Source: a bacterium
Lineage (GTDB): Bacteria > Patescibacteriota > Minisyncoccia > JACQLN01
Assembly: GCA_030697795.1 (NCBI GenBank)
Contig: JAUYOV010000007.1
Span: 73,810-137,809 of the forward strand
Length of the DNA stretch: 64,000 nt
Direction: 5' to 3'
Every line of letters starts with the position of its first letter. Position 1 is the first letter of the stretch. Shown in pieces: positions 3,690-56,858 of this stretch. The notes under the pieces are model-generated. The model worked only from the letters and a program-made list of their open reading frames with translations, was not told where the DNA came from and did no database searches. The translations under genes were made by a program, and so were the position numbers.

Positions 3690-5068
3690 CGACGAAACCT
3701 TGGATGATTGTTTGCGGTCTAGCCATAATAGCGTTCTTCAAGTTCGCGGGCTGGATTGGTAGCTGGAGTATTGGTTTAGGTATTATTGCCATTGTTCTCG
3801 CAGTTGTGGTTTTACAGAACGTGGCATCAGCTCAACTAGGAACATTCAGCAAGATTTTTTTGTGGATGTTCGGAATAGCTGTGGTTGTTCCCGGTTTATA
3901 TAACGCAATTCTCGGTGAAGCTCCGCTAACAAGCGAAGCCATAGAAATGCGCAAACAAGAAGCCGATGTTAGTACAGGCCAAAGAATCCGCCCGCCTATG
4001 CTTTATGGTGTGGAAGGAATTTTGAGCGCTGCCAACGAACTAGACGACGAGATTGGCAAGACTTTGGGCAGAAAAGCAAAAAATCTGGTTGATCAATACT
4101 CGCAAGCCACTGGATCAAATACCGAAATTATCCAAAGAGAATTATTGGTGCTAACCGAGGAAATCAACCAGCACAAAAAATACCTAGAACAGATAAGATT
4201 AAAGACTACCGGTGACCAAGTAAGCTTTACAGGTTTTATAAGTGACCTACAAAAATCGTCCTTGCGGATGGTTATGTGGATCATCTGCTTTATCGGCATA
4301 GCCGTTCTCATAGCCTCCCCATGCTTCGCAAGAGAGTGGAAAAAACTCCCCAAAGGCATAGGCTTATCGCTGGCAATTTTTGGAGGAGTATTCTTGCTAG
4401 ACAGTATCGTCTATGCCGAAGGTACTGTTGGTTCGCCAAATGTGCCCAGTATAAACATGCCGAACCTAGAAGGCCAGGCGTTGTTCTGGATCACAGTTGC
4501 TGTAGTGGTCGGCTTTATAATCGTAAGTATAGCAACCAAAAAAGCCCGATGGGCCTTTATCGGAATCACCATTGGCATAGCTGTGATCGCCGCTACCCAT
4601 TTTTCGGGTTGGTATTACGGCGGTGGGTATGCTGCCGAAGTAGCCGCTCATAACAGGTTGGTGGCTAGTGTTCGAAATGTTGAAAAACGTAAGGAATCTT
4701 TAAACCCTCCGCCGAGTCAACGTGGGCGCTATAATAATCCTGTGCTAAAAGTGCAGGGTCTCGCCCAGAAAGTTACAATAAACATGGACGAGGTTCATTG
4801 GTCTCGACCAATCCAGTGGAGCAGGGATTACAATGTCATCTGGGAAATGCCGGGCTGGTATGAAATAATGCTTCTACCCACCGAGGATAGGATTATAAAT
4901 CGTAATGACGGCACCCTTAGTTCTGGTTTTATCACCTATATTCAAAAAATAGGTCCCGTCATTAGCTATCCCAATAGTATGGAGTTTCGGCAACCGGGCG
5001 TAGTTAAGTCGTTCATAATGCGCGGTGCGCCTGGCACCGGCACGGTGACAGTTTATGACAACTTCTAA
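3686..5068 (+). CDS. Hypothetical polytopic membrane protein with coiled-coil and C-terminal soluble domain
   Basis: 460 aa. ATGA overlap with upstream gene. Hydrophobic segments at N-terminus and mid-protein. GC-rich. Confidence 0.5.
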   Translation: MTTKPWMIVCGLAIIAFFKFAGWIGSWSIGLGIIAIVLAVVVLQNVASAQLGTFSKIFLWMFGIAVVVPGLYNAILGEAPLTSEAIEMRKQEADVSTGQRIRPPMLYGVEGILSAANELDDEIGKTLGRKAKNLVDQYSQATGSNTEIIQRELLVLTEEINQHKKYLEQIRLKTTGDQVSFTGFISDLQKSSLRMVMWIICFIGIAVLIASPCFAREWKKLPKGIGLSLAIFGGVFLLDSIVYAEGTVGSPNVPSINMPNLEGQALFWITVAVVVGFIIVSIATKKARWAFIGITIGIAVIAATHFSGWYYGGGYAAEVAAHNRLVASVRNVEKRKESLNPPPSQRGRYNNPVLKVQGLAQKVTINMDEVHWSRPIQWSRDYNVIWEMPGWYEIMLLPTEDRIINRNDGTLSSGFITYIQKIGPVISYPNSMEFRQPGVVKSFIMRGAPGTGTVTVYDNF

Positions 5069-9127: not shown

Positions 9128-9260
9128 TAAAATATATTTTTAAATTTCCAATTTCTAATATCTAATTACTAATCAAATCCCAATGACTAATGAACAAATA
9201 ACTAAAAAACTTTCTGACATTAGGCGTTTAAGCATTAGACATTGATTAGAAATTGGTAAT
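9128..9260. repeat. Inverted-repeat intergenic element, TCTAAT-unit family (copy 1)
   Basis: Arms aatttccaatttctaatatctaattactaatcaa ... ttgattagaaattggtaatt are reverse complements of each other. Same architecture at 10631, 34508, 36560, 47428, 52253. Confidence 0.7.
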
Positions 9261-9336
9261 TGCTCGCCCTGCGAAGCTTTACTGTGTCCTTCCGAAGCCT
9301 CGTGCGAAGGAGGAGCGGAGTAGGGGAAATTAGGAA

Positions 9337-10630: not shown

Positions 10631-10760
10631 TTGGAAATTACTAATTACCAATTTCTAATTACTAATAAAACTTTAAATGACTAATGACTAAATACTTTTG
10701 GACATTGGGATTTTGGTATTAGACATTGATTAGAAATTAGGTATTAGATATTAGAAATTC
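10631..10760. repeat. Inverted-repeat intergenic element, TCTAAT-unit family (copy 2)
   Basis: ttggaaattactaattaccaatttctaattactaat ... attagacattgattagaaattaggtattagatattagaaatt. Confidence 0.7.
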
Positions 10761-11296: not shown

Positions 11297-11366
11297 CTAG
11301 CTTTTAGCTTTTAGCTTTTAGCTTTCTAGGGAATTTCCTAAAAAGCTGAGAAGCTAGAAAGCTATT

Positions 11367-20252: not shown

Positions 20253-20329
20253 GGGCGTGTAGCTCAATTGGTTAGAGCACAGAGCTTATACCTCTGCGGT
20301 TCTAGGTTCGAGTCCTAGCACGCCCACCA
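20253..20329 (+). tRNA. tRNA-Ile with anticodon TAT (UAU), CCA encoded
   Basis: GGGCGTGTAGCTCAATTGGTTAGAGCACAGAGCTTATACCTCTGCGGTTCTAGGTTCGAGTCCTAGCACGCCCACCA. Ile-like body (compare E. coli Ile GGGCCTGTAGCTCAG...). Anticodon loop CTTATAC. Confidence 0.75.
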
Positions 20330-26464: not shown

Positions 26465-26552
26465 GCACGAAGCACGAAGCACGAAATCCGAAACATTTTG
26501 AATTTAGAATTTGGGATTTGTTTCGAATTTCGAATTTCGATATTCGAATTTA
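26465..26552. repeat. Inverted-repeat intergenic element, CGAAAT/GCACGAA-unit family (copy 1)
   Basis: gcacgaagcacgaagcacgaaatccgaaaca ... tgtttcgaatttcgaatttcgatattcgaattt. Similar modules at 48786-48879 and 50866-50990. Confidence 0.65.
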
Positions 26553-26621
26553 AGAAAATTGCCTCCAGCTTCTTCAACAACCCAAGAACCTAAAAGTGCT
26601 CCGGCTTACAAAATAAGAACT

Positions 26622-33118: not shown

Positions 33119-34225
33119 TTAATTCACAAAAGGATTTCTGGCGCCTCTAACTTCAAAGTGCACGTGGCAACCTGTAGTATTACCGGTGGAACCCATCAAG
33201 GCAATGGTTTGGCCCTTAGTTGCAAATTGGCCTTCGCTAATTAATAATTGCGAAGCGTGAGCGTAAAGAGTAATAGTGTTATTATCGTGAGCTATTTTTA
33301 TATATTTGCCGTAGCCACCATTCCAGCCTTGAGCATCGGCTGTAATAATTGTACCCGCCGCCGAAGCATAAAGCGGTGTGTTGCACCATTCGCGCCCACC
33401 AATATCCACGGCGTTAAATCTGTGTAAACCAAATGTTTTTCGCCCATTAGACGGGTAACCGTAATAACCCGTAAGATTTGGCAAACTTTCGGCCGGCGGA
33501 TTTTTGGCTGGAGCGTATTTTGCGCTTATAGGTACGTGATATTCGCCGCCAGGAATTGTTAAAATTTGCCCCGACACTATTTTGCCGTCGTCCGGTAAAT
33601 CGTTAAAAGCCAATATTCTAGCTTCATCGGCATTGTATTTAATGGCGATAGATTTAATAGTGTCTCCAGATTTTACCGTGTGCCTTACACCATCAACTGG
33701 TAAAACCGAAAGTTTATCGCCAATTTTTAATTTTGTGCCCCTAGGCAAGTTATTAGCGCTAAGCAGAGTAGCCACTGAAATTCCAAAATCATCTGCTATA
33801 GATTCCAAACTATCGCCCGATTCAACTTCGTAAGTAAGAATGTTGCCATCGGACAGAGAACCTTCGGCGCTAGCTGGAATTATGGCTAGCACCGAGCCTT
33901 GCGCTACTAAAGCGTTGCCCACGGTTTCCAAACTAACAGAATTTAAACTTTCGTCTGGACCGCCTAAAGCGCCGTTAGAATTTGTGCCACGGAAAATACC
34001 GCTAATTTTACTTTCCAAATTACCGGCAAAAAGAATAGCCGAAGTTACGGGAGATTCTTGAGGTATTATTTTTTTAATAAAACTTTCGTCTTCGGTATCT
34101 ATTTCTTCTACTATATTTTTATTAGCCGAATCTAAACTGGCAGAATCATTGCCAGAAAAAAACAAAATTGAGACAGAAAAAAACATAACAAAAAAAGCTA
34201 GTATATAAACCAGCTTTTTAGACAA
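33119..34225 (-). CDS. LysM-domain M23-family peptidoglycan metalloendopeptidase
   Basis: 368 aa. N-terminal TM. Two LysM repeats (GDSLESIADDFGISVATLLSANNL; GDTIKSIAIKYNADEARILAFNDL). C-terminal M23 motifs (GYGKYIKIAHDNN...HVHFEV). Confidence 0.8.
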   Translation of the reverse strand: MSKKLVYILAFFVMFFSVSILFFSGNDSASLDSANKNIVEEIDTEDESFIKKIIPQESPVTSAILFAGNLESKISGIFRGTNSNGALGGPDESLNSVSLETVGNALVAQGSVLAIIPASAEGSLSDGNILTYEVESGDSLESIADDFGISVATLLSANNLPRGTKLKIGDKLSVLPVDGVRHTVKSGDTIKSIAIKYNADEARILAFNDLPDDGKIVSGQILTIPGGEYHVPISAKYAPAKNPPAESLPNLTGYYGYPSNGRKTFGLHRFNAVDIGGREWCNTPLYASAAGTIITADAQGWNGGYGKYIKIAHDNNTITLYAHASQLLISEGQFATKGQTIALMGSTGNTTGCHVHFEVRGARNPFVN

Positions 34226-34507
34226 AGAAAAACTTAAAAATAAAACTCGCTTACCCCTTAGAGCAGTCAGAAGATTTTCAAAAAAAGATGAAATTTTATA
34301 CCAAATACTAATCGGATATTGACCTTTACTTAACTAATCTGGTTTAGATAACTATTCTAACCCCAAAATAGGTGGGTATTGGCCTAACAAGCTTACTTAA
34401 GCACAAAACCCTGGTGGGCAGGGTTGTAGGTAAATACTAGCTTTTTTGAGAAGTAAGGTCAATTAGGATATTCCACAGACTACAGCCAAAACACAAGGCT
34501 AGGAAAT

Positions 34508-34618
34508 GTCTAATTTCTAATATCTAATCAATGACTAATTCCAAAATGGCTAATTTTAAAATTTGATCATTAGGCATTAGGATTTGATTAGAAATTAGAA
34601 ATTGGTAATTAGAAATTT
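34508..34618. repeat. Inverted-repeat intergenic element, TCTAAT-unit family (copy 3)
   Basis: gtctaatttctaatatctaatcaatgactaatt ... ggatttgattagaaattagaaattggtaattagaaatt. Confidence 0.7.
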
Positions 34619-34643
34619 TATTATGATCTGCTATAATTTTGTG

Positions 34644-36554
34644 ATGTCTAATATTCTTGACTCTCTAAATAAAGAACAGCGCGAAGCGGTAACTACTATA
34701 GATGGCCCTATTTTGATAATTGCGGGCGCAGGAAGCGGAAAAACCAAAGCCCTGACGCACAAAATTGCCTATTTAATAGAACAAGGAATTTCCCCGGAAA
34801 ATATTTTAGCTTTAACTTTTACAAATAAGGCTGCGGGGGAAATGAAAAACCGTATCAATAAACTGCTGACTAATAACTATCCACTACCAACTTTTGTAGG
34901 CACTTTCCATTCTTTTGCGGCCAGAATTTTAAGACGAGAAATAGATAATATTGGTTATGGCAAAAATTTTGTTATATACGACGTAAGCGACGTACTCTCT
35001 CTCTTAAAAGAAATTGTAGCCGAACTCGGCTTAGACCCAGACCAATTTAAAGCCAATGGTATATATTCGGCTATATCGCGCCAAAAAAATGAACTTGTTA
35101 ATGCCACGATTTATGCTGAAAAAGCAGGAAATTTTAGAGAAAAAATAATAGCTAAAGTTTTCGAAAAATACGAAGCGAGATTAAAAGAAGCTAATGCTTT
35201 AGATTTTGATGACTTGCTTTTACTGCTGGTTAAAGTTTTAAAAAATAATCCTGTTATATTAGAAAAATATCAAAACCAGTTTAAATATGTTTTGGTAGAC
35301 GAATACCAAGACACCAACCATGCTCAATACACTTTGTTAAAGATGTTAGCGCAAAAACACAAAAATATTTGTGTGGTGGGCGACGACTGGCAATCGATAT
35401 ACCTGTTTAGAGGATCCGATTTTAGAAATATGCTTAATTTTGAAAAAGATTATCCCGGCACAAAAATAATTTTTTTAGAAGAAAATTATAGAAGTTCTCA
35501 AAATGTTTTGGATGCCGCCCACGCGGTTATAGCCAAAAATGTTTTTAAAACAGAAAAAAAATTATGGACCGAGCGGGGCGGGGGCGAAAAAATTAAAATA
35601 ATCCAAACGAGCAACGAAACAGAGGAGGGGATTTTTGTGACCGAAGAAATTAAAAAAATATTAAGGACGCAATCAGAAATAGCGCGGGATTTAAATGATT
35701 TTGTTGTTCTTTACCGCACCAACGCCCAATCTCGCGCCATAGAAGAAGCCGTTATAAGGGCTGGCTGGCCCTACCGAATGGTGGGTGCTATAAAATTTTA
35801 CGAACGCCGAGAAGTTAAAGATATTATTGCTTACTTGCGATTTATTCAAAACGAAAAAGATTTAATCAGCTTAAAAAGAATTGTTAATGTGCCACCGCGC
35901 GGGATTGGCAAAACCACGCTAAACCAAATACTTTTAGCCGAACATATTTATGTCTTTAAACATACTAAGTTCGAAGGCTTTCTTAATTTAATTAACGAGA
36001 TTAAAAATGAATCGGCTAATAAAAAAGTTTCCGAGTTAATAAAATTTTTATTAGAAAAAATAGATTATAAAAAATATTGTTTGGATGGCACGGCCGAAGG
36101 CGAATCCCGTTGGGAAAATATTTTAGAACTTATAACCGTGGTCACTAAGTTTGATGTTTTAGAAACACCGGATGGGCTTTCTTCTTTTTTAGAAGAAATA
36201 ACTTTAACAACTTCGGCCGACGATATTTCGGAAGAAAACGGCACGCTAAATTTAATGACACTACATTCGGCCAAAGGTTTAGAATTTCCTGTGGTGTTTA
36301 TTATTGGTGCCGAAGAAGGCTTGTTACCACATGCACGAAGCATGTTTGACCAAACCCAAATGGAAGAAGAACGCCGTCTGGCTTACGTGGGCCTAACTCG
36401 GGCTAAAGAAAAGGCCTATTTTGTTTTTACGCGCCGAAGAAGCATATATGGTAAAAGTGAACCCGCCTTGCCTTCACGTTTTTTGGGTGATATACCAGTA
36501 AGATTGGTGGAGTTTGAAGAATACCAAGCAGGAGAAGAGGTGTTGGATATATAA
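34644..36554 (+). CDS. pcrA: UvrD/PcrA/Rep-family ATP-dependent DNA helicase
   Basis: Start at ATG MSNILDSLNKEQREAV; upstream track extension lies in the repeat. Walker A AGAGSGKT and helicase motifs through to C-terminus. Confidence 0.9.
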   Translation: MSNILDSLNKEQREAVTTIDGPILIIAGAGSGKTKALTHKIAYLIEQGISPENILALTFTNKAAGEMKNRINKLLTNNYPLPTFVGTFHSFAARILRREIDNIGYGKNFVIYDVSDVLSLLKEIVAELGLDPDQFKANGIYSAISRQKNELVNATIYAEKAGNFREKIIAKVFEKYEARLKEANALDFDDLLLLLVKVLKNNPVILEKYQNQFKYVLVDEYQDTNHAQYTLLKMLAQKHKNICVVGDDWQSIYLFRGSDFRNMLNFEKDYPGTKIIFLEENYRSSQNVLDAAHAVIAKNVFKTEKKLWTERGGGEKIKIIQTSNETEEGIFVTEEIKKILRTQSEIARDLNDFVVLYRTNAQSRAIEEAVIRAGWPYRMVGAIKFYERREVKDIIAYLRFIQNEKDLISLKRIVNVPPRGIGKTTLNQILLAEHIYVFKHTKFEGFLNLINEIKNESANKKVSELIKFLLEKIDYKKYCLDGTAEGESRWENILELITVVTKFDVLETPDGLSSFLEEITLTTSADDISEENGTLNLMTLHSAKGLEFPVVFIIGAEEGLLPHARSMFDQTQMEEERRLAYVGLTRAKEKAYFVFTRRRSIYGKSEPALPSRFLGDIPVRLVEFEEYQAGEEVLDI

Positions 36555-36559
36555 AAACA

Positions 36560-36682
36560 AATTTCTAATTACTAATATCTAATTTCTAATCAAATCCTAA
36601 GGCCTAATTATCAAACCTTAAAATAGACATTTTAGAATTAGACATTGATTAGATATTAGAAATTGGATATTAGATATTTCAA
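36560..36682. repeat. Inverted-repeat intergenic element, TCTAAT-unit family (copy 4, clearest example)
   Basis: Left arm aaatttctaattactaatatctaatttctaatcaa. Reverse complement of right arm aaatatctaatatccaatttctaatatctaatcaa. About 50-nt unique centre. Confidence 0.75.
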
Positions 36683-36685
36683 AAT

Positions 36686-37564
36686 ATGTTAAAAAGAAAA
36701 AATAAATTGTTATTAGAATCAGCCGACATTCGCCCAATTAAACATATGGGGCAAAACTTCTTAGTTTCCGAAGAAATTATAGAGAAAATAATTTTAGAGG
36801 CAAAGATTAAAACGGGCGAAACTATTTTAGAAGTTGGACCAGGTACGGGCAATTTAACTATGGCGTTATTGGCAACAGGGGCAAAAGTGGTAGCAATAGA
36901 AAAGGATTCTAAATTAGTTCATCTGTTAATTTCTAATTTCCAATTTCTAATTTCTAAAAAAAAATTAAAGGTAATTGAACAAGATATTTTGAGTTTTGAT
37001 GAAATGGCGATCAAATCGCCATATAGAGTAATCGCCAACATTCCCTATTATTTAACGGGCAAGCTGATTCAAAAATTTCTGCTTTCGGCTAATAAACCAT
37101 CGGAATTAATACTTATGGTTCAAAAAGAAGTGGGCGAGAGGATAACGGCGCAACCACCCAAAGCTAATTTTCTTTCTTCGCTAGTGCAGTTTCTGGCCGA
37201 AACCAAAATTTTATTTAAAGTAGGTAAAGAAAACTTCTGGCCTCAACCTAAAGTAGATTCAGCCTTGATTAAACTAACCCCGTACCAATATACACCGAGC
37301 ATACGATCGTATGCTCGTGATACGGTTGGAATCAATATCAATAATAATGAGGAATTTATAGAGTTTTTGAAGATGGTTTTTAGGCAACCGCGGCAGACGC
37401 TTTTTAATAATCTAAGAAAATATCTAGTTAGCACGAGTCAGCGATCGCCAGCTCATGCTAAATTAGATTCAGTCTTTCAAGAGCTTGGATTTGATAAAAA
37501 AATACGAGCTCAAAACTTGGGCAAGGAAGACCTTGTCAATCTTTTTAGCTTATTAGGATATTAG
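36686..37564 (+). CDS. rsmA: 16S rRNA (adenine1518/1519-N6)-dimethyltransferase RsmA/KsgA
   Basis: 292 aa. ILEVGPGTGNLT (SAM motif I) and NIPYYLTGKL match KsgA. Contains an internal ttaatttctaatttccaatttctaatttctaaaaaaaaa stretch coding LISNFQFLISKKK. Confidence 0.8.
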   Translation: MLKRKNKLLLESADIRPIKHMGQNFLVSEEIIEKIILEAKIKTGETILEVGPGTGNLTMALLATGAKVVAIEKDSKLVHLLISNFQFLISKKKLKVIEQDILSFDEMAIKSPYRVIANIPYYLTGKLIQKFLLSANKPSELILMVQKEVGERITAQPPKANFLSSLVQFLAETKILFKVGKENFWPQPKVDSALIKLTPYQYTPSIRSYARDTVGININNNEEFIEFLKMVFRQPRQTLFNNLRKYLVSTSQRSPAHAKLDSVFQELGFDKKIRAQNLGKEDLVNLFSLLGY

Positions 37565-44087: not shown

Positions 44088-44122
44088 CACACTAATATAT
44101 AAATGACAAATGAATCCAAAAA

Positions 44123-44155
44123 CCCTAAATCATAAATCCGAAACTCTAAACAAAC
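44123..44155. repeat. Left arm of inverted-repeat element carrying four-helix-bundle gene (CTAAAT-unit family)
   Basis: ccctaaatcataaatccgaaactctaaacaaac. Reverse complement resembles right arm at 44531-44575. Confidence 0.6.
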
Positions 44156-44159
44156 ACTA

Positions 44160-44519
44160 ATGAACCAAATTACAAACAAGAATAATTACGACCTAGAAGA
44201 AAGGACGTTAAAATTTGCCCAAAGAGTAAATGAATATGTCCGTAAGTTATCAAGGACAATAACTAACATAGAGAATGGCAAACAATTAGTGAGATCAGGT
44301 GGATCAGTAGGAGCAAACTATATAGAAGCTAACGAATCCCTTGGTAGAAAAGACTTTATGATGAGAATTAAGATATCCAAAAAAGAAACAAAAGAAAGTA
44401 GATACTGGCTAATACTAACAGAGCCGAATAAAGACAACCTACTTGAAAAAGAAAGTTTGATTAAGGAATCTACGGAGCTTATGAAAATATTTGGTTCAAT
44501 CCTAGAAAAATCAAAATAG
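44160..44519 (+). CDS. Four-helix-bundle protein (family often found in 23S rRNA intervening sequences)
   Basis: 119 aa. ...TLKFAQRVNEYVRKLSRTITNIENGKQLVRSGGSVGANYIEANESLGRKDFMMRIKISKKETKESRYWLILTE matches the four-helix-bundle (TIGR02436-type) signature (QLxRS..SIGANI.EA...S.KDF...I..KE..ET.YWL). Confidence 0.7.
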   Translation: MNQITNKNNYDLEERTLKFAQRVNEYVRKLSRTITNIENGKQLVRSGGSVGANYIEANESLGRKDFMMRIKISKKETKESRYWLILTEPNKDNLLEKESLIKESTELMKIFGSILEKSK

Positions 44520-44530
44520 GTTATTGGTAA

Positions 44531-44575
44531 ATTGTGATTTATAATTTGTTTAGGATTTAGATATTAGAATTTAGT
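44531..44575. repeat. Right arm of inverted-repeat element carrying four-helix-bundle gene
   Basis: aattgtgatttataatttgtttaggatttagatattagaatttag. Confidence 0.6.
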
Positions 44576-44591
44576 ATTTCACACACATATT

Positions 44592-44870: not shown

Positions 44871-44892
44871 TAAACAATCAAATTATAAATAC

Positions 44893-44985
44893 TAAATCCG
44901 AAACTCTAAACAAACTCCAAATGCCAATTTACCAAATTAGAATTTGTGATTTAAATATTGTTTAGGATTTAGATATTAGAATTTA
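44893..44985. repeat. 'Empty' copy of the four-helix-bundle-carrying inverted-repeat element (left + right arms with about 25-nt gene remnant)
   Basis: ctaaatccgaaactctaaacaaac | tccaaATGccaatttaccaaattag | aatttgtgatttaaatattgtttaggatttagatattagaatttag. Arms near-identical to those at 44123 and 44531. Confidence 0.6.
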
Positions 44986-44991
44986 GAGATT

Positions 44992-45665: not shown

Positions 45666-47426
45666 ATGGAACCGAAAAACCAACAAATCGCCTCGGCCGG
45701 CACCCTAGAAGATCTTTTAGCCCCGCCGGCTTTACAGGTCAATCCTTCTAATTTGCAGATAGGCGAGAAATTTTCTAGAACAATATTTGTGGCTAATTAC
45801 CCTAGATTTTTGAGCGTGGGCTGGTTTTCGCCTATTATTAACTTAGATAAAATTTTTGATGTTTCTTTATTTATTCAACCCTCCGAAACTGGTCCTGTTT
45901 TAAAAAAACTAACCAAAAAAACAGCGCAGATCGGCGCGCAGATGTCGGAAAAAGAAGAGGGGGGTTTTATACGCGATCCCATGCTAGAAACAGCTTACCA
46001 AGATTTAGAATCTTTGCGCGATAAACTGCAACAAGGCACTGAAAGGTTTTTTCGGGCCGGCTTATATCTTACTTTTTATGCTAGTTCCGTAAAAGAACTG
46101 GATGATGTTGAAAGCAGAGTAAATACGATATTAGAATCAAAATTAATATATTCTAAAGTTGCGGTGTTCCAGCAACAAGAAGGCTATACCTCTACCCTGC
46201 CTTTAAATTTAGATAAGCTTCAGGTTTATAATAGCTTAAACACTGGCCCGCTTTCTTCTTTCTTTCCTTTTGTTTCAGCCGATCTTACCTCCAACAAAGG
46301 TGTGCTTTATGGCATAAACAGGCACAATAACAGCCTTATACTTTTTGATAGATTCTCTTTAGAAAACGCCAACACGGTTGTTTTTGCTAAATCCGGTTCG
46401 GGCAAAAGCTATACTGTTAAATTAGAGGTTTTACGTTCCTTAATGCTAGGCACCGATGTAATAATTATAGACCCAGAAAGCGAGTATAAATACTTAAACG
46501 ATGTAGTGGGCGGAACTTTTGTAAATATTTCTTTAACTTCTGCTAACCATATAAATCCGTTTGATTTAACTATACCCAGCGAAGATGAAAGCCCAGCCGA
46601 AGTTTTAAAAGCTAATATTATAGAGCTGACCGGCTTATTAAAAGTAATGTTGGGCCAGTTAACGCCCGAAGAAGATTCAATTATAGACAAAGCCTTAACC
46701 GAAACCTATGCTTCGCGCGATATCAGCATAAATTCGGATTGGCGGGGCAAACAGGTACCTTTAATGGGCGACCTGCATACCGTATTAAAAAACATGCAGG
46801 GCGCGGAAAAATTAGCCATTCGCATAGAAAAATATGTGACAGGCACATTCTCTGGCTTTTTAAATCAACCCACCAATGTGGCCTTAAACAATAACTTAGT
46901 TGTTTTTTCTATAAGAGATCTGGAACCAGAACTTCGCCCAGTGGCTATGTATATTTTATTGCACTATGTTTGGAACTTAATAAGAGCGCAAAGAAAGAAA
47001 AGAATAATGGTGGTGGACGAGGCCTGGTGGATGATGCAACATCAAGAAGCCGGCGCGTTTTTATTTAGCATTGCCAAAAGATGCCGTAAATATTATTTGG
47101 GGCTTACCACTATAACCCAAGACGTGGAAGATTTTATGAAATCGCAATACGGCAAGCCCATTGTAACCAATTCCGCCCTGCAAATATTGCTAAAGCAATC
47201 GCCGGCGGCCATAGACACGGTGGCTCAAACATTTAATTTAACCGATGAAGAAAAGTTTTTACTTTTAGAGTCCAGCGTGGGCGAAGGCATATTTTTAGCC
47301 GGTTTAAAGCGCGCGGCTATAAAAGTGGTGGCTTCTTATACCGAAGATCAAGTTATTACATCCGACCCAGCGCAATTATTGGAAATAGAAGCGGCTAAGA
47401 AAGAACTAGCCGAAGCACAGAAATGA
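45666..47426 (+). CDS. virB4: VirB4/TrbE/PrgJ-like ATPase, C-terminal ATPase fragment
   Basis: 586 aa. Walker A FAKSGSGKS, Walker B/DEAW (IMVVDEAWWMM), and the conserved motifs of T4SS VirB4 ATPases. Confidence 0.85.
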   Translation: MEPKNQQIASAGTLEDLLAPPALQVNPSNLQIGEKFSRTIFVANYPRFLSVGWFSPIINLDKIFDVSLFIQPSETGPVLKKLTKKTAQIGAQMSEKEEGGFIRDPMLETAYQDLESLRDKLQQGTERFFRAGLYLTFYASSVKELDDVESRVNTILESKLIYSKVAVFQQQEGYTSTLPLNLDKLQVYNSLNTGPLSSFFPFVSADLTSNKGVLYGINRHNNSLILFDRFSLENANTVVFAKSGSGKSYTVKLEVLRSLMLGTDVIIIDPESEYKYLNDVVGGTFVNISLTSANHINPFDLTIPSEDESPAEVLKANIIELTGLLKVMLGQLTPEEDSIIDKALTETYASRDISINSDWRGKQVPLMGDLHTVLKNMQGAEKLAIRIEKYVTGTFSGFLNQPTNVALNNNLVVFSIRDLEPELRPVAMYILLHYVWNLIRAQRKKRIMVVDEAWWMMQHQEAGAFLFSIAKRCRKYYLGLTTITQDVEDFMKSQYGKPIVTNSALQILLKQSPAAIDTVAQTFNLTDEEKFLLLESSVGEGIFLAGLKRAAIKVVASYTEDQVITSDPAQLLEIEAAKKELAEAQK

Positions 47427-47427
47427 C

Positions 47428-47538
47428 AAATTCCTAATTTCTAATCAATTTCTAATGCTTAAATGCCTAATTTCAGAACTTAGCCATTAGACATTTTGGT
47501 TTGATTAGATATTAGAAATTAGATATTAGACATTTTAA
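47428..47538. repeat. Inverted-repeat intergenic element, TCTAAT-unit family (copy 5)
   Basis: caaattcctaatttctaatcaatttctaatgcttaaatgcctaatt ... gtttgattagatattagaaattagatattagacatttt. Confidence 0.7.
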
Positions 47539-48781: not shown

Positions 48782-48785
48782 TAAA

Positions 48786-48879
48786 TAAATCCGAAGCACG
48801 AAATCCGAAGCACGAAACAAATCTCAAATTCAAAATTTTAAATTACAAATTTTGGGTATTAAGATTTGGATATTGGAAT
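48786..48879. repeat. Inverted-repeat intergenic element, CGAAAT/GCACGAA-unit family (copy 2)
   Basis: aaatccgaagcacgaaatccgaagcacgaaacaaatctcaaattcaaaat ... attttgggtattaagatttggatattggaatttgtttg. Confidence 0.6.
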
Positions 48880-49722
48880 TTGTTTGTAATTTGTTGCTTG
48901 GGATTTGTAATTTTGTCGTCTTCGTCTTCGGCGCTGGAGGTTTCTTTTCCCACAGTTCAAGGCGCGGAAGTGGGCGACTCTATGGGGCCGGCTGAATGGA
49001 TAAAATATATTTTTCTTTTGGCCCAAGCTCTGGTGGGCCTCGCCATAATATACGCCTTTGTTAGAGCGGGCTTATTATGGATGACGGGCGGCGACAATCA
49101 AACCAGAATAGGCGAGGCTAAAAAGTGGATCACCGGCGCTATAACAGGACTCGTTATACTTTTAGGCTCTTATTTATTTTTAAAAACTATAAACCCGCAA
49201 CTGGTTAACATTAAAAACCCGGGCGTAAACTTTGGCACCGACGCACCCAGTGGTATATTAGATTTTTGGAATAAATTGTTTTTTAAAAAACATGGCGTGG
49301 GAGAATCTTGTGGGTCTAGTTTTGATTGCCAAGGCCTTCTTGAGTGCGTGAGAGACCCTAAAAACCCCAGAGCATCTAGTGGTGTATGCACCAACACAAG
49401 CGAGTTATTTTTAGGATATGAAGCTGGTCATGCATGCGGAAAAGATTCTGAATGTGGTGATGATTTAACTTGTGACGACGAAAAAAAAGTTTGTGTCGCT
49501 GGAACAAAAACAGCTGGGGGATCAATATGCGGACCAGGAAATCAGTGTTCTAGTGAACAAAGATGTTTTAAAACATCTTCTGGCGAATTAGCTGAAAACA
49601 TACCTGGCGAGTGTAGTTCTTACAAAGCGCTAGGCGAAGATTGTAGAACAGATATCGCCAATGAATGCCGTGGTATTGGAACAGAATGCGACCTAACAAC
49701 TAAAAAGTGTATAAAAAAATAA
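48880..49722 (+). CDS. VirB2/TrbC-like pilin-family N-terminal domain fused to a C-terminal domain of four Cys-rich repeats
   Basis: Probable TTG start at 48880 (signal-like LFVICCLGFVILSSSSSA). Helix-MTGGDNQTRIGEAKKWI-helix as in the 7220/7746/8101 paralogs. C-terminus has four repeats of C-x-C-type modules (CGSSFDCQGLLEC; CGKDSECGDDLTC; CGPGNQCSSEQRC; CRTDIANECRGIGTEC). The track ORF starts at 48778 inside the repeat. Confidence 0.5.
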   Translation: MFVICCLGFVILSSSSSALEVSFPTVQGAEVGDSMGPAEWIKYIFLLAQALVGLAIIYAFVRAGLLWMTGGDNQTRIGEAKKWITGAITGLVILLGSYLFLKTINPQLVNIKNPGVNFGTDAPSGILDFWNKLFFKKHGVGESCGSSFDCQGLLECVRDPKNPRASSGVCTNTSELFLGYEAGHACGKDSECGDDLTCDDEKKVCVAGTKTAGGSICGPGNQCSSEQRCFKTSSGELAENIPGECSSYKALGEDCRTDIANECRGIGTECDLTTKKCIKK

Positions 49723-50859: not shown

Positions 50860-50865
50860 AGAAAA

Positions 50866-50990
50866 TTCAAAGCACGAAATACGAAATTCGAAACAAATTC
50901 CAATGTTCAAAATCCCAAATCCAAAACCGTTTAGAATTTATAATTTGGTATTTAGATATTGTTTCGGATTTCGATATTGGGATTTCGTAT
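50866..50990. repeat. Inverted-repeat intergenic element, CGAAAT-unit family (copy 3)
   Basis: aaagcacgaaatacgaaattcgaaacaaattccaat ... attgtttcggatttcgatattgggatttcgtattt. Confidence 0.65.
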
Positions 50991-51446: not shown

Positions 51447-51541
51447 GAGTTTTCGCCAATATGACTAATCTAAACTAATATACCAATAGATTTAATTAGC
51501 TATATTCGCGTCAATTCGTATATTAGCTTTTATTGGCTATA
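51447..51541. repeat. Inverted-repeat intergenic element, ATTCG-unit family; contains 27-mer identical to 56824-56850
   Basis: tatattcgcgtcaattcgtatattagc at 51501-51527 is identical to 56824-56850. Confidence 0.7.
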
Positions 51542-52249
51542 TTAGCGATTACGCATAATAACATACTGCTGAAGTAGGGTAAACAAAGTTGTAACTACCC
51601 AATAAAGAGCAAGCCCCGAAGGCAGTTTCCAAGAAATTAATACAGTAAACACTGGCAAAAAGTATAGAGTTTGCTTGGTTATGGCTTGAGTTATGTATTC
51701 ATCGGAGGCTTTGGGTGCGTTAGGCAATTTACTGTTTTTGGGCATCGTCATTTTAGCCTGAAAAAACTGGCTCACGCCGGCTAATATAGCCAAAACACTG
51801 TTCGGCAATGCTAAATTAACAAAACCAAAAAACATAGGATCAATAACATTTGGGTTATTAACAAAAGAATAAAGATCCGATAAACTATTTGGATCAAACC
51901 CCTTAAGAAAGACTTGATATAGAGCTATAAGAATAGGAATTTGGACCAACAAGGGCAAACAGCCAGACATGGGGTTAACCTTGTTCTCTTTATAGAACGC
52001 CATTAACTTTTTTGACTGCTCTTCTTTATTATCTTTATATTTTTCTTGAATTTCTTTGATTTTCGGCTGAATTTCTTGCAAAGCCCTTTGGGATTTAACA
52101 GCTTTGCCGGTCAGGGGCCAAAAAACAAGTTTAACAATCGCCGTTACAGCTATAATGGCAAGGCCAATGTCGGAACCGGGTATGGTGTTGTATAAAAAAA
52201 CTAAAAGATTAAATAAGGGGCGATATAAAAATTCGTTGAAAATATTCAC
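51542..52249 (-). CDS. yidC: Membrane protein insertase YidC (short monoderm-type)
   Basis: 235 aa. ...GLAIIAVTAIVKLVFWPLTGKAVKSQRALQEIQPKIKEIQEKYK...MSGCLPLLVQIPILIALYQVF is typical of YidC/Oxa1. Confidence 0.9.
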   Translation of the reverse strand: MNIFNEFLYRPLFNLLVFLYNTIPGSDIGLAIIAVTAIVKLVFWPLTGKAVKSQRALQEIQPKIKEIQEKYKDNKEEQSKKLMAFYKENKVNPMSGCLPLLVQIPILIALYQVFLKGFDPNSLSDLYSFVNNPNVIDPMFFGFVNLALPNSVLAILAGVSQFFQAKMTMPKNSKLPNAPKASDEYITQAITKQTLYFLPVFTVLISWKLPSGLALYWVVTTLFTLLQQYVIMRNR

Positions 52250-52252
52250 TTT

Positions 52253-52352
52253 AATATCTAATGTCTAATTACTAATATCTAATCAATTTCTAATGTCTAA
52301 ATAGTCTTATCATTAGTCATTGGGATTTGATTAGAAATTAGATATTAGAAAT
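52253..52352. repeat. Inverted-repeat intergenic element, TCTAAT-unit family (copy 6), inside the rnpA-yidD-yidC operon
   Basis: atatctaatgtctaattactaatatctaatcaatttctaatgtctaaat ... gggatttgattagaaattagatattagaaattt. Confidence 0.7.
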
Positions 52353-52355
52353 TTG

Positions 52356-52586
52356 TTACTTACACCTAATTATTCTTTTAATAGCCAGCCGAAGACCCCT
52401 GCACACCCCGTGTTTATCAATAGACTCCACACTATATTGTGAACAAGTAGGTTTTTGCCTGCAACCAGAAGGTAGGCCTGAGTTTAAGTTAAACATAGGC
52501 GATAAATAAATAAAATTAAAAAACCCCGTGCTAGGCGATAGGGTTTTTTGATAAATTTTAATCAAAAATATGGCTAGTTTCTTCAT
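52356..52586 (-). CDS. yidD: Membrane protein insertion efficiency factor YidD
   Basis: 76 aa. ...CRQKPTCSQYSVESIDKHGVCRGLRLAIKRIIRC matches the YidD Cys motif (CRF.PSCS.Y...A....G...G..L...RI.RC). Confidence 0.75.
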   Translation of the reverse strand: MKKLAIFLIKIYQKTLSPSTGFFNFIYLSPMFNLNSGLPSGCRQKPTCSQYSVESIDKHGVCRGLRLAIKRIIRCK

Positions 52587-53010: not shown

Positions 53011-53341
53011 TTAAAATAATCCTAATCTACGAATTTTATCCGAATTCTCCGAATAAATCTATTTGGAGCATTAGGATACATTCGGATTTTTTGGATTATG
53101 TCATTGTAGCAACAATGTAAAAGTTAGACAATATTTGGTTAAAGTATTCTCGCGTAAAATAACTTTACAAACTAGGCAAGATTTATTGCACAATTAATTA
53201 ACAAGTTATCCACAGTTTGGTACAATTGCTTAACAAATTTTATTATTTGCTTGGCGTGATATAATTCCCAACGTTAAAAGCCTCCCGCACCTTTTCAAAG
53301 TAAAAATATCTATACCACAAAAAGGTGCGGGACAAAAAATA
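53011..53341. promoter_or_regulatory. rpmH-dnaA spacer: oriC candidate / dnaA promoter region with perfect DnaA box TTATCCACA (53206-53214), an ATTCG-type inverted repeat and a hairpin immediately before dnaA
   Basis: TTATCCACA read at 53206-53214. AT-rich. Hairpin cccgcaccttttc...aaaaaggtgcggg at 53287-53335. Confidence 0.5.
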
Positions 53342-56745: not shown

Positions 56746-56858
56746 TTTGTAGTGTTCGCCAATATAGCTAATCAAAGCTAATATAGCGAATCGCGTCTGA
56801 CGCTACGAATGAATTCTTATTAGTATATTCGCGTCAATTCGTATATTAGCGAAAAGTA
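56746..56858. repeat. Inverted-repeat intergenic element, ATTCG-unit family (shares exact 27-mer with 51501-51527)
   Basis: ...agtatattcgcgtcaattcgtatattagcgaaaag. Confidence 0.7.

Follow-up and report, generated by a model that had tools for sequence, protein, structure and literature searches.

Inverted heptamer arrays at gene junctions of a 64-kb bacterial DNA stretch and their relation to a four-helix-bundle gene

We analysed a 64-kb stretch of bacterial DNA, called the window below, in which spacers between protein-coding genes are filled by hairpins whose arms are tandem heptamers. The window encodes pilins of a type IV secretion system (T4SS) and a short YidC and contains the dnaA/rpmH region, and the closest homologues of its RsmA come from metagenome-assembled genomes (MAGs) of Patescibacteria. 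The focal element occupies the spacer between uvrD and rsmA and is one of six copies of a module built of CTAAT and ATTAG units (copies 1 to 6; Table 1). An initial annotation had listed six inverted-repeat modules here, one of them inside the rnpA-yidD-yidC operon; all six are present, at or a few bases off the positions it gave, and copy 6 indeed separates yidD from yidC. The flanking genes are co-directional at five of the six copies and divergent at one (copy 3). No rRNA gene was found in the window, and all elements lie between protein-coding genes.

CTAAT hairpins at gene junctions

The CTAAT elements are ~105-125 bases long and consist of two inverted arrays of a heptamer, NCTAATN in one arm and ATTAGNN in the other. 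Tandem Repeats Finder returned a period of 7 with ~4.4 copies in every arm, which replaces the unit of 5-6 nt described initially. Read 5' to 3' on either strand, the layout is AAAAT, ~5 NCTAATN units, CTAATCAA, a variable centre that is still heptamer-like, TTGATTAG, ~5 ATTAGNN units and ATTTT, with CTAATCAA...TTGATTAG as the invariant core of the CTAAT copies. The NCTAATN units contain C and no G. Units were counted in both arms of 23 elements, taken from the window and from other genomes; 31 of the 46 arms have exactly five. When the six copies were aligned, mean column identity was 64%, and the invariant columns were mostly the CTAAT/ATTAG pentamers and TTGATTAG.

These motifs are far more frequent in the window than chance would allow: CTAATNNCTAAT occurs 24 times against 0.37 expected (0 of 100 shuffles reach the count), and for the inner junction TTGATTAGA there are 10 occurrences where 0.93 would be expected, a count that no shuffle reaches. 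The arms of the focal copy (36559-36600 and 36638-36679) are 42 nt each and 79% complementary. All copies fold as a single long hairpin on both strands (z-scores -3.1 to -7.5), with a stem that is a string of 5-bp helices with small internal loops between them. TAA within CTAAT of the left arm and TAG within ATTAG of the right arm recur with period 7, so that within 21 nt every arm offers a stop in each of the three frames. The loops of the six copies measure 37-65 nt, have stop codons in all frames and hold no open reading frame (ORF) of the PF05635 family. Against Rfam covariance models the window gave just three tRNAs and no element at the gathering threshold, and at E ≤ 5 the elements received chance matches to miRNA hairpins alone.

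The elements touch or overlap the upstream stop codon and end 3-12 nt short of the next ATG. Genes just downstream of them (starts 9117, 10629, 36686, 47540, 52249 and others) have no Shine-Dalgarno sequence, unlike other genes of the window, which carry AAGGAGG. A promoter-like site that serves uvrD, TAGAAA-16-TG-TATAAT, shares part of its -35 region with the last unit of copy 3. The true start of this gene is the conserved ATG at 34647, and the listed TTG start at 34602 is spurious. That ORF starts run into the six copies had been noted before; this holds for 34602, which runs into copy 3, and fails for 48778, which runs into an element of CGAAA/TTTCG type. As a separate observation, uvrD looks leaderless, its ATG lying 9 nt past the -10 hexamer (site region 34610-34649), and both TATAAT and ATG are kept in three syntenic relatives, L121, L124 and L125, whose RsmA is 65-69% identical to that of the window.

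The right arm of copy 1 is split by a 64-nt GC-rich insert (9263-9326) and goes on at 9327-9336, where it borders immediately on the solute-binding-protein gene's stop codon. The insert folds at -23.8 kcal/mol. At the orthologous site the element of L121 has a GC-rich segment of similar size in its loop, and no further copy of the insert was found among the window and the fetched sequences.

A four-helix-bundle gene framed by heptamer arrays

One insert of the window, 504 nt long (44088-44591), carries a gene between its arms. The product of 119 amino acids matches PF05635 23S_rRNA_IVP (E = 1.3e-11), TIGR02436 (E = 3e-17) and the PDB entry 2rld, and belongs to the four-helix-bundle proteins related to S23p and Avd. 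At the next gene junction lies a 121-nt element with no gene whose arms are 28/30 (93%) and 44/47 (94%) identical to those of the 504-nt copy, and the two are a gene-carrying and a gene-less form of one element. The nearest homologue of the protein is 85% identical, against 69% for the nearest homologue of RsmA, and a 77%-identical copy of the gene sits in an unrelated context. In part because of these two observations, we suggest some form of mobility.

Orthologous junctions in the relatives are filled or empty, as the initial annotation had proposed to examine. At two T4SS junctions L125 and L121 read TAA-N-ATG where the window has the 504-nt and the 121-nt inserts, and the sequence at the site of the 504-nt insert is TAAtATG in both; stop codon and ATG hold orthologous positions with and without insert. 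The TraG-like gene and the gene after it are 113 nt apart in the window (copy 5) and 36 nt apart in L125. Between uvrD and rsmA the window has a CTAAT hairpin and L124 a degenerate one; in L121 a hairpin of A/T heptamers takes this place, and in L125 there are just 35 nt, made of four direct NNCTAAA units. Thus where spacers of the window measure 113-504 nt, those of L125 and L121 are 35-36 nt or one nucleotide long. The 504-nt insert is also present in a closer relative, L207, which has a different hairpin of opposite polarity at the next junction and one more hairpin where the corresponding junction of the window is empty. With arms that pair and insertions that differ between relatives, the modules are an organised family of non-coding inverted repeats, as first described. 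Retention by descent had been named as a sign against such a family if no polymorphism accompanied it; the comparison shows vertical retention, in which units turn over fast, as well as clear presence/absence.

To define the surroundings of the gene independently of the CTAAT motif, 80 metagenome loci were fetched by the four-helix-bundle protein (the protein-only sample). Period-7 C.AA[AT] links precede the start in 85% of flanks (n = 67), and period-7 [AT]TT.G links follow the stop in 87% (n = 77). At a threshold of two links the proportions are 69% upstream and 75% downstream, compared with 0.9% of control windows from the same loci, and the motif of wrong polarity is rare at these flanks. 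The gene is near-universally framed by inverted heptamer arrays. The consensus of the left terminus is AAAAT.C.AAa..CtAAat.C.AAAt.C.AAAcAAattCaAATG. The two arms of a locus pair with each other at -30.4 kcal/mol, compared with -24.9 for arms of other loci (p = 0.005) and -18.8 for shuffled arms, and in gene-carrying elements the sense orientation is the more stable one in 44 cases versus 22 (p = 0.016). When a profile of the CTAAT arms was searched with nhmmer, 15 of the 17 matches with E ≤ 1 lay at four-helix-bundle flanks in the expected orientation.

Arrays also accompany the gene in cultured organisms. We examined 12 genes on complete plasmids of Cyanobacteriota, Bacteroidota, Chloroflexota, Bacillota and Spirochaetota, and 11 have heptamer arrays on at least one side, the gene of Chlorohelix showing a weak downstream signal alone. 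Flavours are lineage-specific and include AATTCGC/GCGAATT, CCCCAAT with CGTAAAT, TTCAAAA/TTTTGAA, CACTGGT, TAACTGA-type units, ATTAGGA/TCCTAAT and GAAAGTG/CTCTCCG. The S23p/"four helix bundle" family has at least 7,994 database members.

The isolate genes usually lie between operon partners (cas2/cas1, drmD/MmeI, RND subunits, hsdS/hsdR). On plasmids of Nostoc and Anabaena the gene lies between cas2 and cas1 on the opposite strand, and in Pseudanabaena directly upstream of cas1; the cas-adjacent genes are at 401-757 of L215, 392-739 of L216 and 348-716 of L223. DISARM, restriction-modification and RND operons are split by four-helix-bundle copies in L218, L219, L220 and L225, the gene being unannotated in L225.

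CTAAT-armed four-helix-bundle genes exist in other phyla. Among loci fetched by the CTAAT pattern, two Planctomycetota MAGs (L003, L004) have the gene framed by CTAAT...CTAATCAA on one side and TTGATTAG...ATTAG on the other, and a Saccharibacteria locus (L057) has it framed by A/T-rich heptamer arrays. The sequence CTAATTACTAATTTCTAATCAATGACC precedes the gene of L207, and several window copies have an inner left part, CAAATCCCAATGAC, similar to the sequence around the start codon of four-helix-bundle genes (consensus CAAATTCAAATGACC).

The modules had been called genome-specific, which does not hold. A scan for TTGATTAGANATTNGNNATTNG in one genome per GTDB species gave more than 120 loci at least, many single matches being possibly chance. 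Among the matches listed, complete two-armed modules with the same core are found in other Patescibacteria and in a Nanoarchaeota MAG, many two-armed copies in a "Proteobacteria" MAG of 55-59% GC, a two-armed module in a Gammaproteobacteria MAG of 63% GC, and further ones in Phycisphaerae and other Planctomycetota of 64-67% GC, where the units drift to CGAAT/CATTCGT. Blocks of 15 nt such as CTAATCAAATCCCAA and TTGGGATTTGATTAG are common to the candidate phyla radiation (CPR), the Proteobacteria and the 63%-GC Gammaproteobacteria MAG. Viral contigs (2.9 million) gave three matches of which just one is a real hairpin, and this single convincing copy indicates that phages are no obvious vector. 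A literature search by heptamer strings found nothing.

Interpretation and rival explanations

We favour, with moderate confidence, a reading of the CTAAT modules as ORF-less members of a family of fold-back elements of the intervening sequence (IVS) type, tied to the four-helix-bundle gene and lodged in transcribed spacers. The full-length form would hold a PF05635/TIGR02436 gene (S23p, a homologue of Avd) in its loop between arms of ~5 tandem heptamers each. Such elements would sit in transcribed spacers of protein-coding operons in place of rRNA helices, typically bounded exactly by a stop and a start codon. Co-transcribed with the host operon, they would fold back into an imperfect ~40-bp stem, the base of which would bring the upstream stop and the downstream start together, and coupled translation of genes lacking a Shine-Dalgarno sequence would survive. 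Stops in three frames, TAA and TAG, would keep translation out of the element. To judge by the rRNA IVSs, the stems are probably substrates of RNase III, which would cut them. That a pentameric ring of the protein binds the arrays of ~5 heptamers is speculation.

The closest known parallel is the IVS of 23S rRNA. In Coxiella it is described as a selfish element with terminal inverted repeats, which pair into a stem that RNase III cuts and that has S23p in its loop; the ATG follows two or three tandem GACAGAT heptamers, whose number varies between strains, and the 5' cut falls at the first repeat (PMC4990558). Xanthomonas S23p is a homopentameric toroid (PMC4990558), PF05635 resembles Avd, a protein of diversity-generating retroelements (DGRs; PMC10053308), and CPR rRNA genes contain 23S_rRNA_IVP ORFs as well as many short ORF-less IVSs (PMC11270868). 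The elements described here share with the IVSs of Coxiella, Leptospira and others a PF05635 ORF in the loop that lacks a good Shine-Dalgarno sequence, heptamers directly upstream of its start, short ORF-less versions and a sporadic, seemingly horizontally spread distribution (PMC4990558, PMC11270868). They differ in lying between protein-coding cistrons and not in a 23S rRNA helix, in having both arms made wholly of ~5 heptamers, and in the six CTAAT copies being without ORF; moreover, RNase III excision has been shown for rRNA IVSs, whereas cleavage of the window elements is a proposal.

Several catalogued repeats have a period of 7 as well. The short tandemly repeated repetitive (STRR) sequences of cyanobacteria are intergenic 7-bp tandem units that can form hairpins, as between the co-transcribed hupS and hupL, with a proposed role in transcript stability or translational coupling (PMC2670836). 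The window units resemble them in period, intergenic position and hairpin formation, and differ in their Patescibacteria-like host, the NCTAATN unit and the fixed two-arm layout with its core; STRR-like heptamers (CCCCAAT, AATTCGC, TTCAAAA, CACTGGT) frame four-helix-bundle genes on plasmids of Planktothrix, Nostoc and Euhalothece. The TAACTGA repeats of Beggiatoaceae, cyanobacteria and Bacteroidetes bear stops, lie immediately upstream of starts without Shine-Dalgarno sequence, vary in 7-nt increments and are patchily distributed, with S1, Csp or CsrA proposed as binders (MacGregor 2015; PMC4679880). Window arrays likewise end a few nucleotides before such starts, but they are inverted pairs of NCTAATN where TAACTGA repeats are mostly direct and one-sided. 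Units of TAACTGA type flank the four-helix-bundle gene of Chondrinema, and the TAACTGA paper makes no connection to S23p or IVSs (PMC4679880). In Xanthomonas and Nostoc the abundant intergenic heptamers GGGAATC/GGGGATT form 70-75 convergent inverted pairs per genome between aligned ORFs (PMC4692102); unlike the window elements they are G-rich and were read as formers of G-quadruplexes, with no core junction or gene partner reported (PMC4692102).

Long imperfect intercistronic stems with internal loops are also the RNase III hairpins of the early genes of phage T7, where processing parts the cistrons from each other and leaves a stabilising 3' hairpin. Those are unique sequences, unlike the window elements, which are repeat arrays and insertions for which cleavage is proposed by analogy.

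A number of observations weigh against the favoured reading. None of the six CTAAT modules holds a gene, and no CTAAT-armed four-helix-bundle gene was seen in the window. The copies are just 57-74% identical in pairwise comparison, with interiors that share the motif grammar alone, and no target-site duplication was seen at four filled/empty comparisons (prgI, traC and traG junctions, uvrD-rsmA); taken together, these two results do not appear to support recent transposition. Matches between CTAAT arms and sampled CTAAA/CGAAA arms are individually weak (E = 0.1-10). The short orthologous spacers of L125 resemble one-unit miniatures, a pattern that slippage might produce by growth in place. Heptamer hairpins are heterogeneous, since L207 has two of reversed polarity (3713-3823 and 4493-4596), at T4SS junctions, with a T/G-rich 5' arm (TTCTTAG...) and an A/C-rich 3' arm (...AACTAAG) that ends at the ATG. 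Finally, with arms anchored on the core, variable positions are complementary in 44% of cases within an ORF-less CTAAT element versus 48% between elements, and of 14 ORF-less copies with known transcription direction just 4 are more stable on the sense strand, a tally that leans to antisense if anything. Since the variable positions are not complementary, the pairing of ORF-less CTAAT copies comes from inverted pentamers alone; this chance-level pairing favours what would be a constraint on the motif. Together with the 4 of 14 copies, it gives no sign of selection for an RNA stem in the ORF-less copies. Since variable positions pair no better than between unrelated copies, we gave up the notion that compensatory change maintains the ORF-less stems.

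The arrays could instead be simple-sequence repeats grown in place by slippage, in the manner of STRR sequences, with inverted pairs that are harmless or mildly useful and a gene that merely tends to such spacers. We regard this as an improbable but live alternative and grant it some weight, because unit number and flavour differ between orthologous spacers, down to the one-unit or four-unit miniatures of L125, variable positions of the arms are not complementary, copies become unalignable past the motif grammar, slippage changes the number of heptamers in Coxiella and Cyanothece, and a role of this kind was suggested for the hupS-hupL hairpins (PMC2670836). However, a 1-nt TAAtATG junction cannot seed arrays of 120-500 nt, the 15-nt blocks CTAATCAAATCCCAA and TTGGGATTTGATTAG are shared across phyla, arm length is held narrowly at ~5 units, and AT-rich arrays persist at 65-67% GC. 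Slippage also leaves the arrays at 85-87% of four-helix-bundle flanks, against 0.9% of controls at the two-link threshold, to be accounted for. Another account makes the heptamer the candidate site of an oligomeric binder, whether the pentameric four-helix-bundle protein, a cold-shock protein or an S1-type OB-fold protein, that would control translation or stability of the flanking cistrons, the hairpin being a by-product. Conservation of the pentamer core alone in each unit, the lack of covariation between arms, the match between ~5 units per arm and a homopentameric toroid (PMC4990558; 2rld has five chains), the position of arrays at the ribosome-binding site of Shine-Dalgarno-less genes, as for TAACTGA repeats (PMC4679880), and flavours that change with lineage together with the gene all agree with it. 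We nevertheless hold it to be improbable, if still a live alternative, and give it little weight: flavour diversity would need rapid co-evolution of sequence-specific recognition, some elements lie where two genes converge and no start codon is close, and arm pairing is element-specific in the gene-carrying elements. A DNA-binding-protein array and an RNA structural element had both been offered in the initial annotation, and either may still apply.

The initial annotation had called the modules MITE-like. MITEs (miniature inverted-repeat transposable elements) of the classical kind are internally deleted DNA transposons moved in trans by a transposase acting on terminal inverted repeats (TIRs). 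The likeness is real in so far as the modules are small, non-coding, intergenic, multi-copy inverted repeats with presence/absence polymorphism and have a gene-carrying partner with the same arms; with MITEs and the REP/REPIN class (Correia, RUP, BOX, REPIN-RAYT) they share short, non-coding, hairpin-forming, multi-copy sequences, elements of that class being often co-transcribed and non-autonomous. It fails in the rest, as no transposase or RAYT partner was found, none of the former among the roughly half of the window ORFs scanned against Pfam, the sole longer partner found encodes a four-helix-bundle protein, target-site duplications are missing at all four comparisons, copies at 57-74% identity share no unique internal sequence, and the would-be TIRs are tandem heptamer arrays and not unique ends. 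A role in punctuating transcription, as bidirectional intrinsic terminators or outward-facing promoters, would suit elements that directly follow stop codons, convergent junctions included, and have AAAAT/ATTTT outer ends, a TTGATT resembling a -35 box and, in copy 3, a last unit overlapping the -35 region of a good promoter-like site. Yet a scan of 34200-37000 found no G+C-rich stem with a T-run in copies 3 and 4, and 15 promoter-like matches, no excess over the 9.9 ± 3.4 of shuffles, the sole good site being that of uvrD. A 2x2 mismatch interrupts the AU-rich stems every 7 nt, and elements lie inside essential tight operons (rpmH-rnpA-yidD-yidC, T4SS) where termination would be harmful. Classical MITEs are unlikely, and we attach hardly any credence to them; a terminator or promoter role is likewise unlikely, to much the same degree.

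Three narrower candidates were set aside. AATCAA is not an IHF site by inspection, the TTR part of the consensus being unmet. A Rho rut site in the C-containing, G-less 5' arm was ruled out as a general explanation by the hairpins of reversed polarity in L207 and by cyanobacteria, which are rich in heptamer arrays and are not known to have Rho. Integron attC sites and CRISPR were ruled out by anatomy, the host genes being housekeeping ones and spacer-repeat regularity being absent.

Beyond the favoured reading of the CTAAT copies as IVS-type elements, we raise a broader and distinctly tentative proposal, namely that STRR sequences, TAACTGA repeats, the GGGAATC pairs of Xanthomonas, the heptamers of the Coxiella IVS and the CTAAT hairpins are arms or remnants of one superfamily of fold-back elements tied to an Avd-like pentameric four-helix-bundle protein. 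Its ring might engage the ~5 heptamers of each arm and mediate spread, perhaps by way of an RNA intermediate as with Avd in DGRs, both to rRNA helices and to transcribed stop/start junctions, and the stems might be RNase III sites that make "mRNA intervening sequences". The link between heptamer arrays and the four-helix-bundle gene appears unreported: in the literature searched, we found no paper that ties STRR, TAACTGA or GGGAATC repeats to the gene and none on IVS-like elements at operon junctions.

The heptamer repeats catalogued in cyanobacteria, Beggiatoaceae and Xanthomonas had no agreed origin or function and are now tied to the S23p family, while S23p/four-helix-bundle proteins have no known role outside DGRs. 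IVS-like elements colonise junctions of protein-coding operons in addition to rRNA, in at least five phyla of cultured organisms and many MAG lineages. If true, the favoured reading would account for mis-called starts and inflated spacers in compact CPR genomes, flag a source of assembly breaks and false ORFs, and suggest how insertions might do no harm to operons with translational coupling. The link to the four-helix-bundle gene may account for an entire class of bacterial heptamer repeats that has so far lacked an explanation.

Other heptamer elements and neighbouring features

Heptamer elements of the window are not limited to the six copies first counted. The window has 42 spacers of 40 nt or more; in 13-14 of them lag-7 periodicity is strong (autocorrelation ≥ 0.45, background ~0.30), and at least nine further period-7 hairpins of other flavours fill spacers (Table 1). 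The termini of the hairpin that follows the PNPase-like gene match the consensus termini of four-helix-bundle gene elements, and the left arm of the CGAAA/TTTCG hairpin at the convergent junction ends in CAAATTCCAATG, a match to the start-codon region of four-helix-bundle genes. The two GCTAATA hairpins have a 27-nt stretch in common.

Table 1. Heptamer elements of the window and genes bound up with them.
Feature	Position	Strand	Surroundings
CTAAT hairpin, copy 1	9141-9263	none	between solute-binding-protein gene and pilin/VanY, co-directional
CTAAT hairpin, copy 2	10634-10760	none	methyltransferase stop 10751 / solute-binding-protein start 10629, both genes minus
TAGCTTT x4 / AAAGCTA array	11297-11366	none	spacer of gyrA and methyltransferase gene; abuts ATG 11296
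Gene-less hairpin, CGAAA/TTTCG	26465-26556	none	after gene ending 26464 (RNase PH, KH, S1 domains; PNPase-like)
CTAAT hairpin, copy 3	34503-34619	none	divergent spacer upstream of uvrD
CTAAT hairpin, copy 4 (focal)	36558-36680	none	whole uvrD-rsmA spacer; stop 36552-36554, ATG 36686
Left heptamer array, A/C-rich, CTAAA/CGAAA type	44088-44159	+	gene-carrying element
Four-helix-bundle gene, 119 aa (S23p/Avd-like)	44160-44519	+	in loop of the element
Right heptamer array, T/G-rich, TTTAG/ATTAG type	44520-44591	+	ends at ATG of prgI-like gene
Gene-less twin, CTAAA/TTTAG type	44871-44991	none	site empty (TAAtATG) in L125 and L121
CTAAT hairpin, copy 5	47420-47536	none	TGA of TraG-like gene inside first unit; ATG of next gene 47540
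Gene-less hairpin, CGAAA flavour	48782-48915	none	spurious ORF start 48778 runs in
Gene-less hairpin, CGAAA/TTTCG	50860-50990	none	convergent gene junction
Hairpin, GCTAATA/TATTAGC	51447-51541	none	between yidC and jag
yidC	51542-52249	minus	flanks copy 6; YidC of 235 aa
CTAAT hairpin, copy 6	52251-52355	none	yidD/yidC junction, rpmH-rnpA-yidD-yidC-jag operon (minus)
yidD	52356-52586	minus	flanks copy 6
Hairpin, CCGAAT/ATTCGG	53011-53112	none	immediately upstream of rpmH, rpmH-dnaA divergent region
Hairpin, GCTAATA/TATTCGC	56746-56858	none	between yebC-like gene and ruvC

Heptamer hairpins enclose two mechanically called ORF starts, 26511 (TTG) and 48778 (ATG), which are almost certainly wrong. 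The genes themselves begin downstream; 26577 and 48940, past the hairpins, were taken as provisional working starts. A perfect TTTGATA x4.4 array at 938-968 adjoins a tRNA-Arg gene (980-1052, minus).

A solo array of CTAAT type (TTCTAAT, TTCCAAT, TTCTAAT, TTCTAAA; 36927-36957) lies in frame inside rsmA (36686-37564). It encodes LISNFQFLISKK in a variable loop, and the unit that would give an in-frame TAA reads CAA. The peptide is the same in L124, and the loops of L121 and L125 are unrelated to it.

Upstream of a LysM/M23 peptidase gene (33119-34225, minus), ~250 nt of non-coding DNA (34226-34480) are conserved in L121, L124 and L125, and the adjacent hairpin region is not. The conserved region contains the stem AACCCTGCCCACCAGGGTT at 34407-34425, has no match in Rfam and could be a conserved leader or a small RNA. 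Bacteria usually read AUA through a lysidine-modified CAT anticodon, and a tRNA-Ile with anticodon TAT is uncommon; the window has one at 20253-20329.

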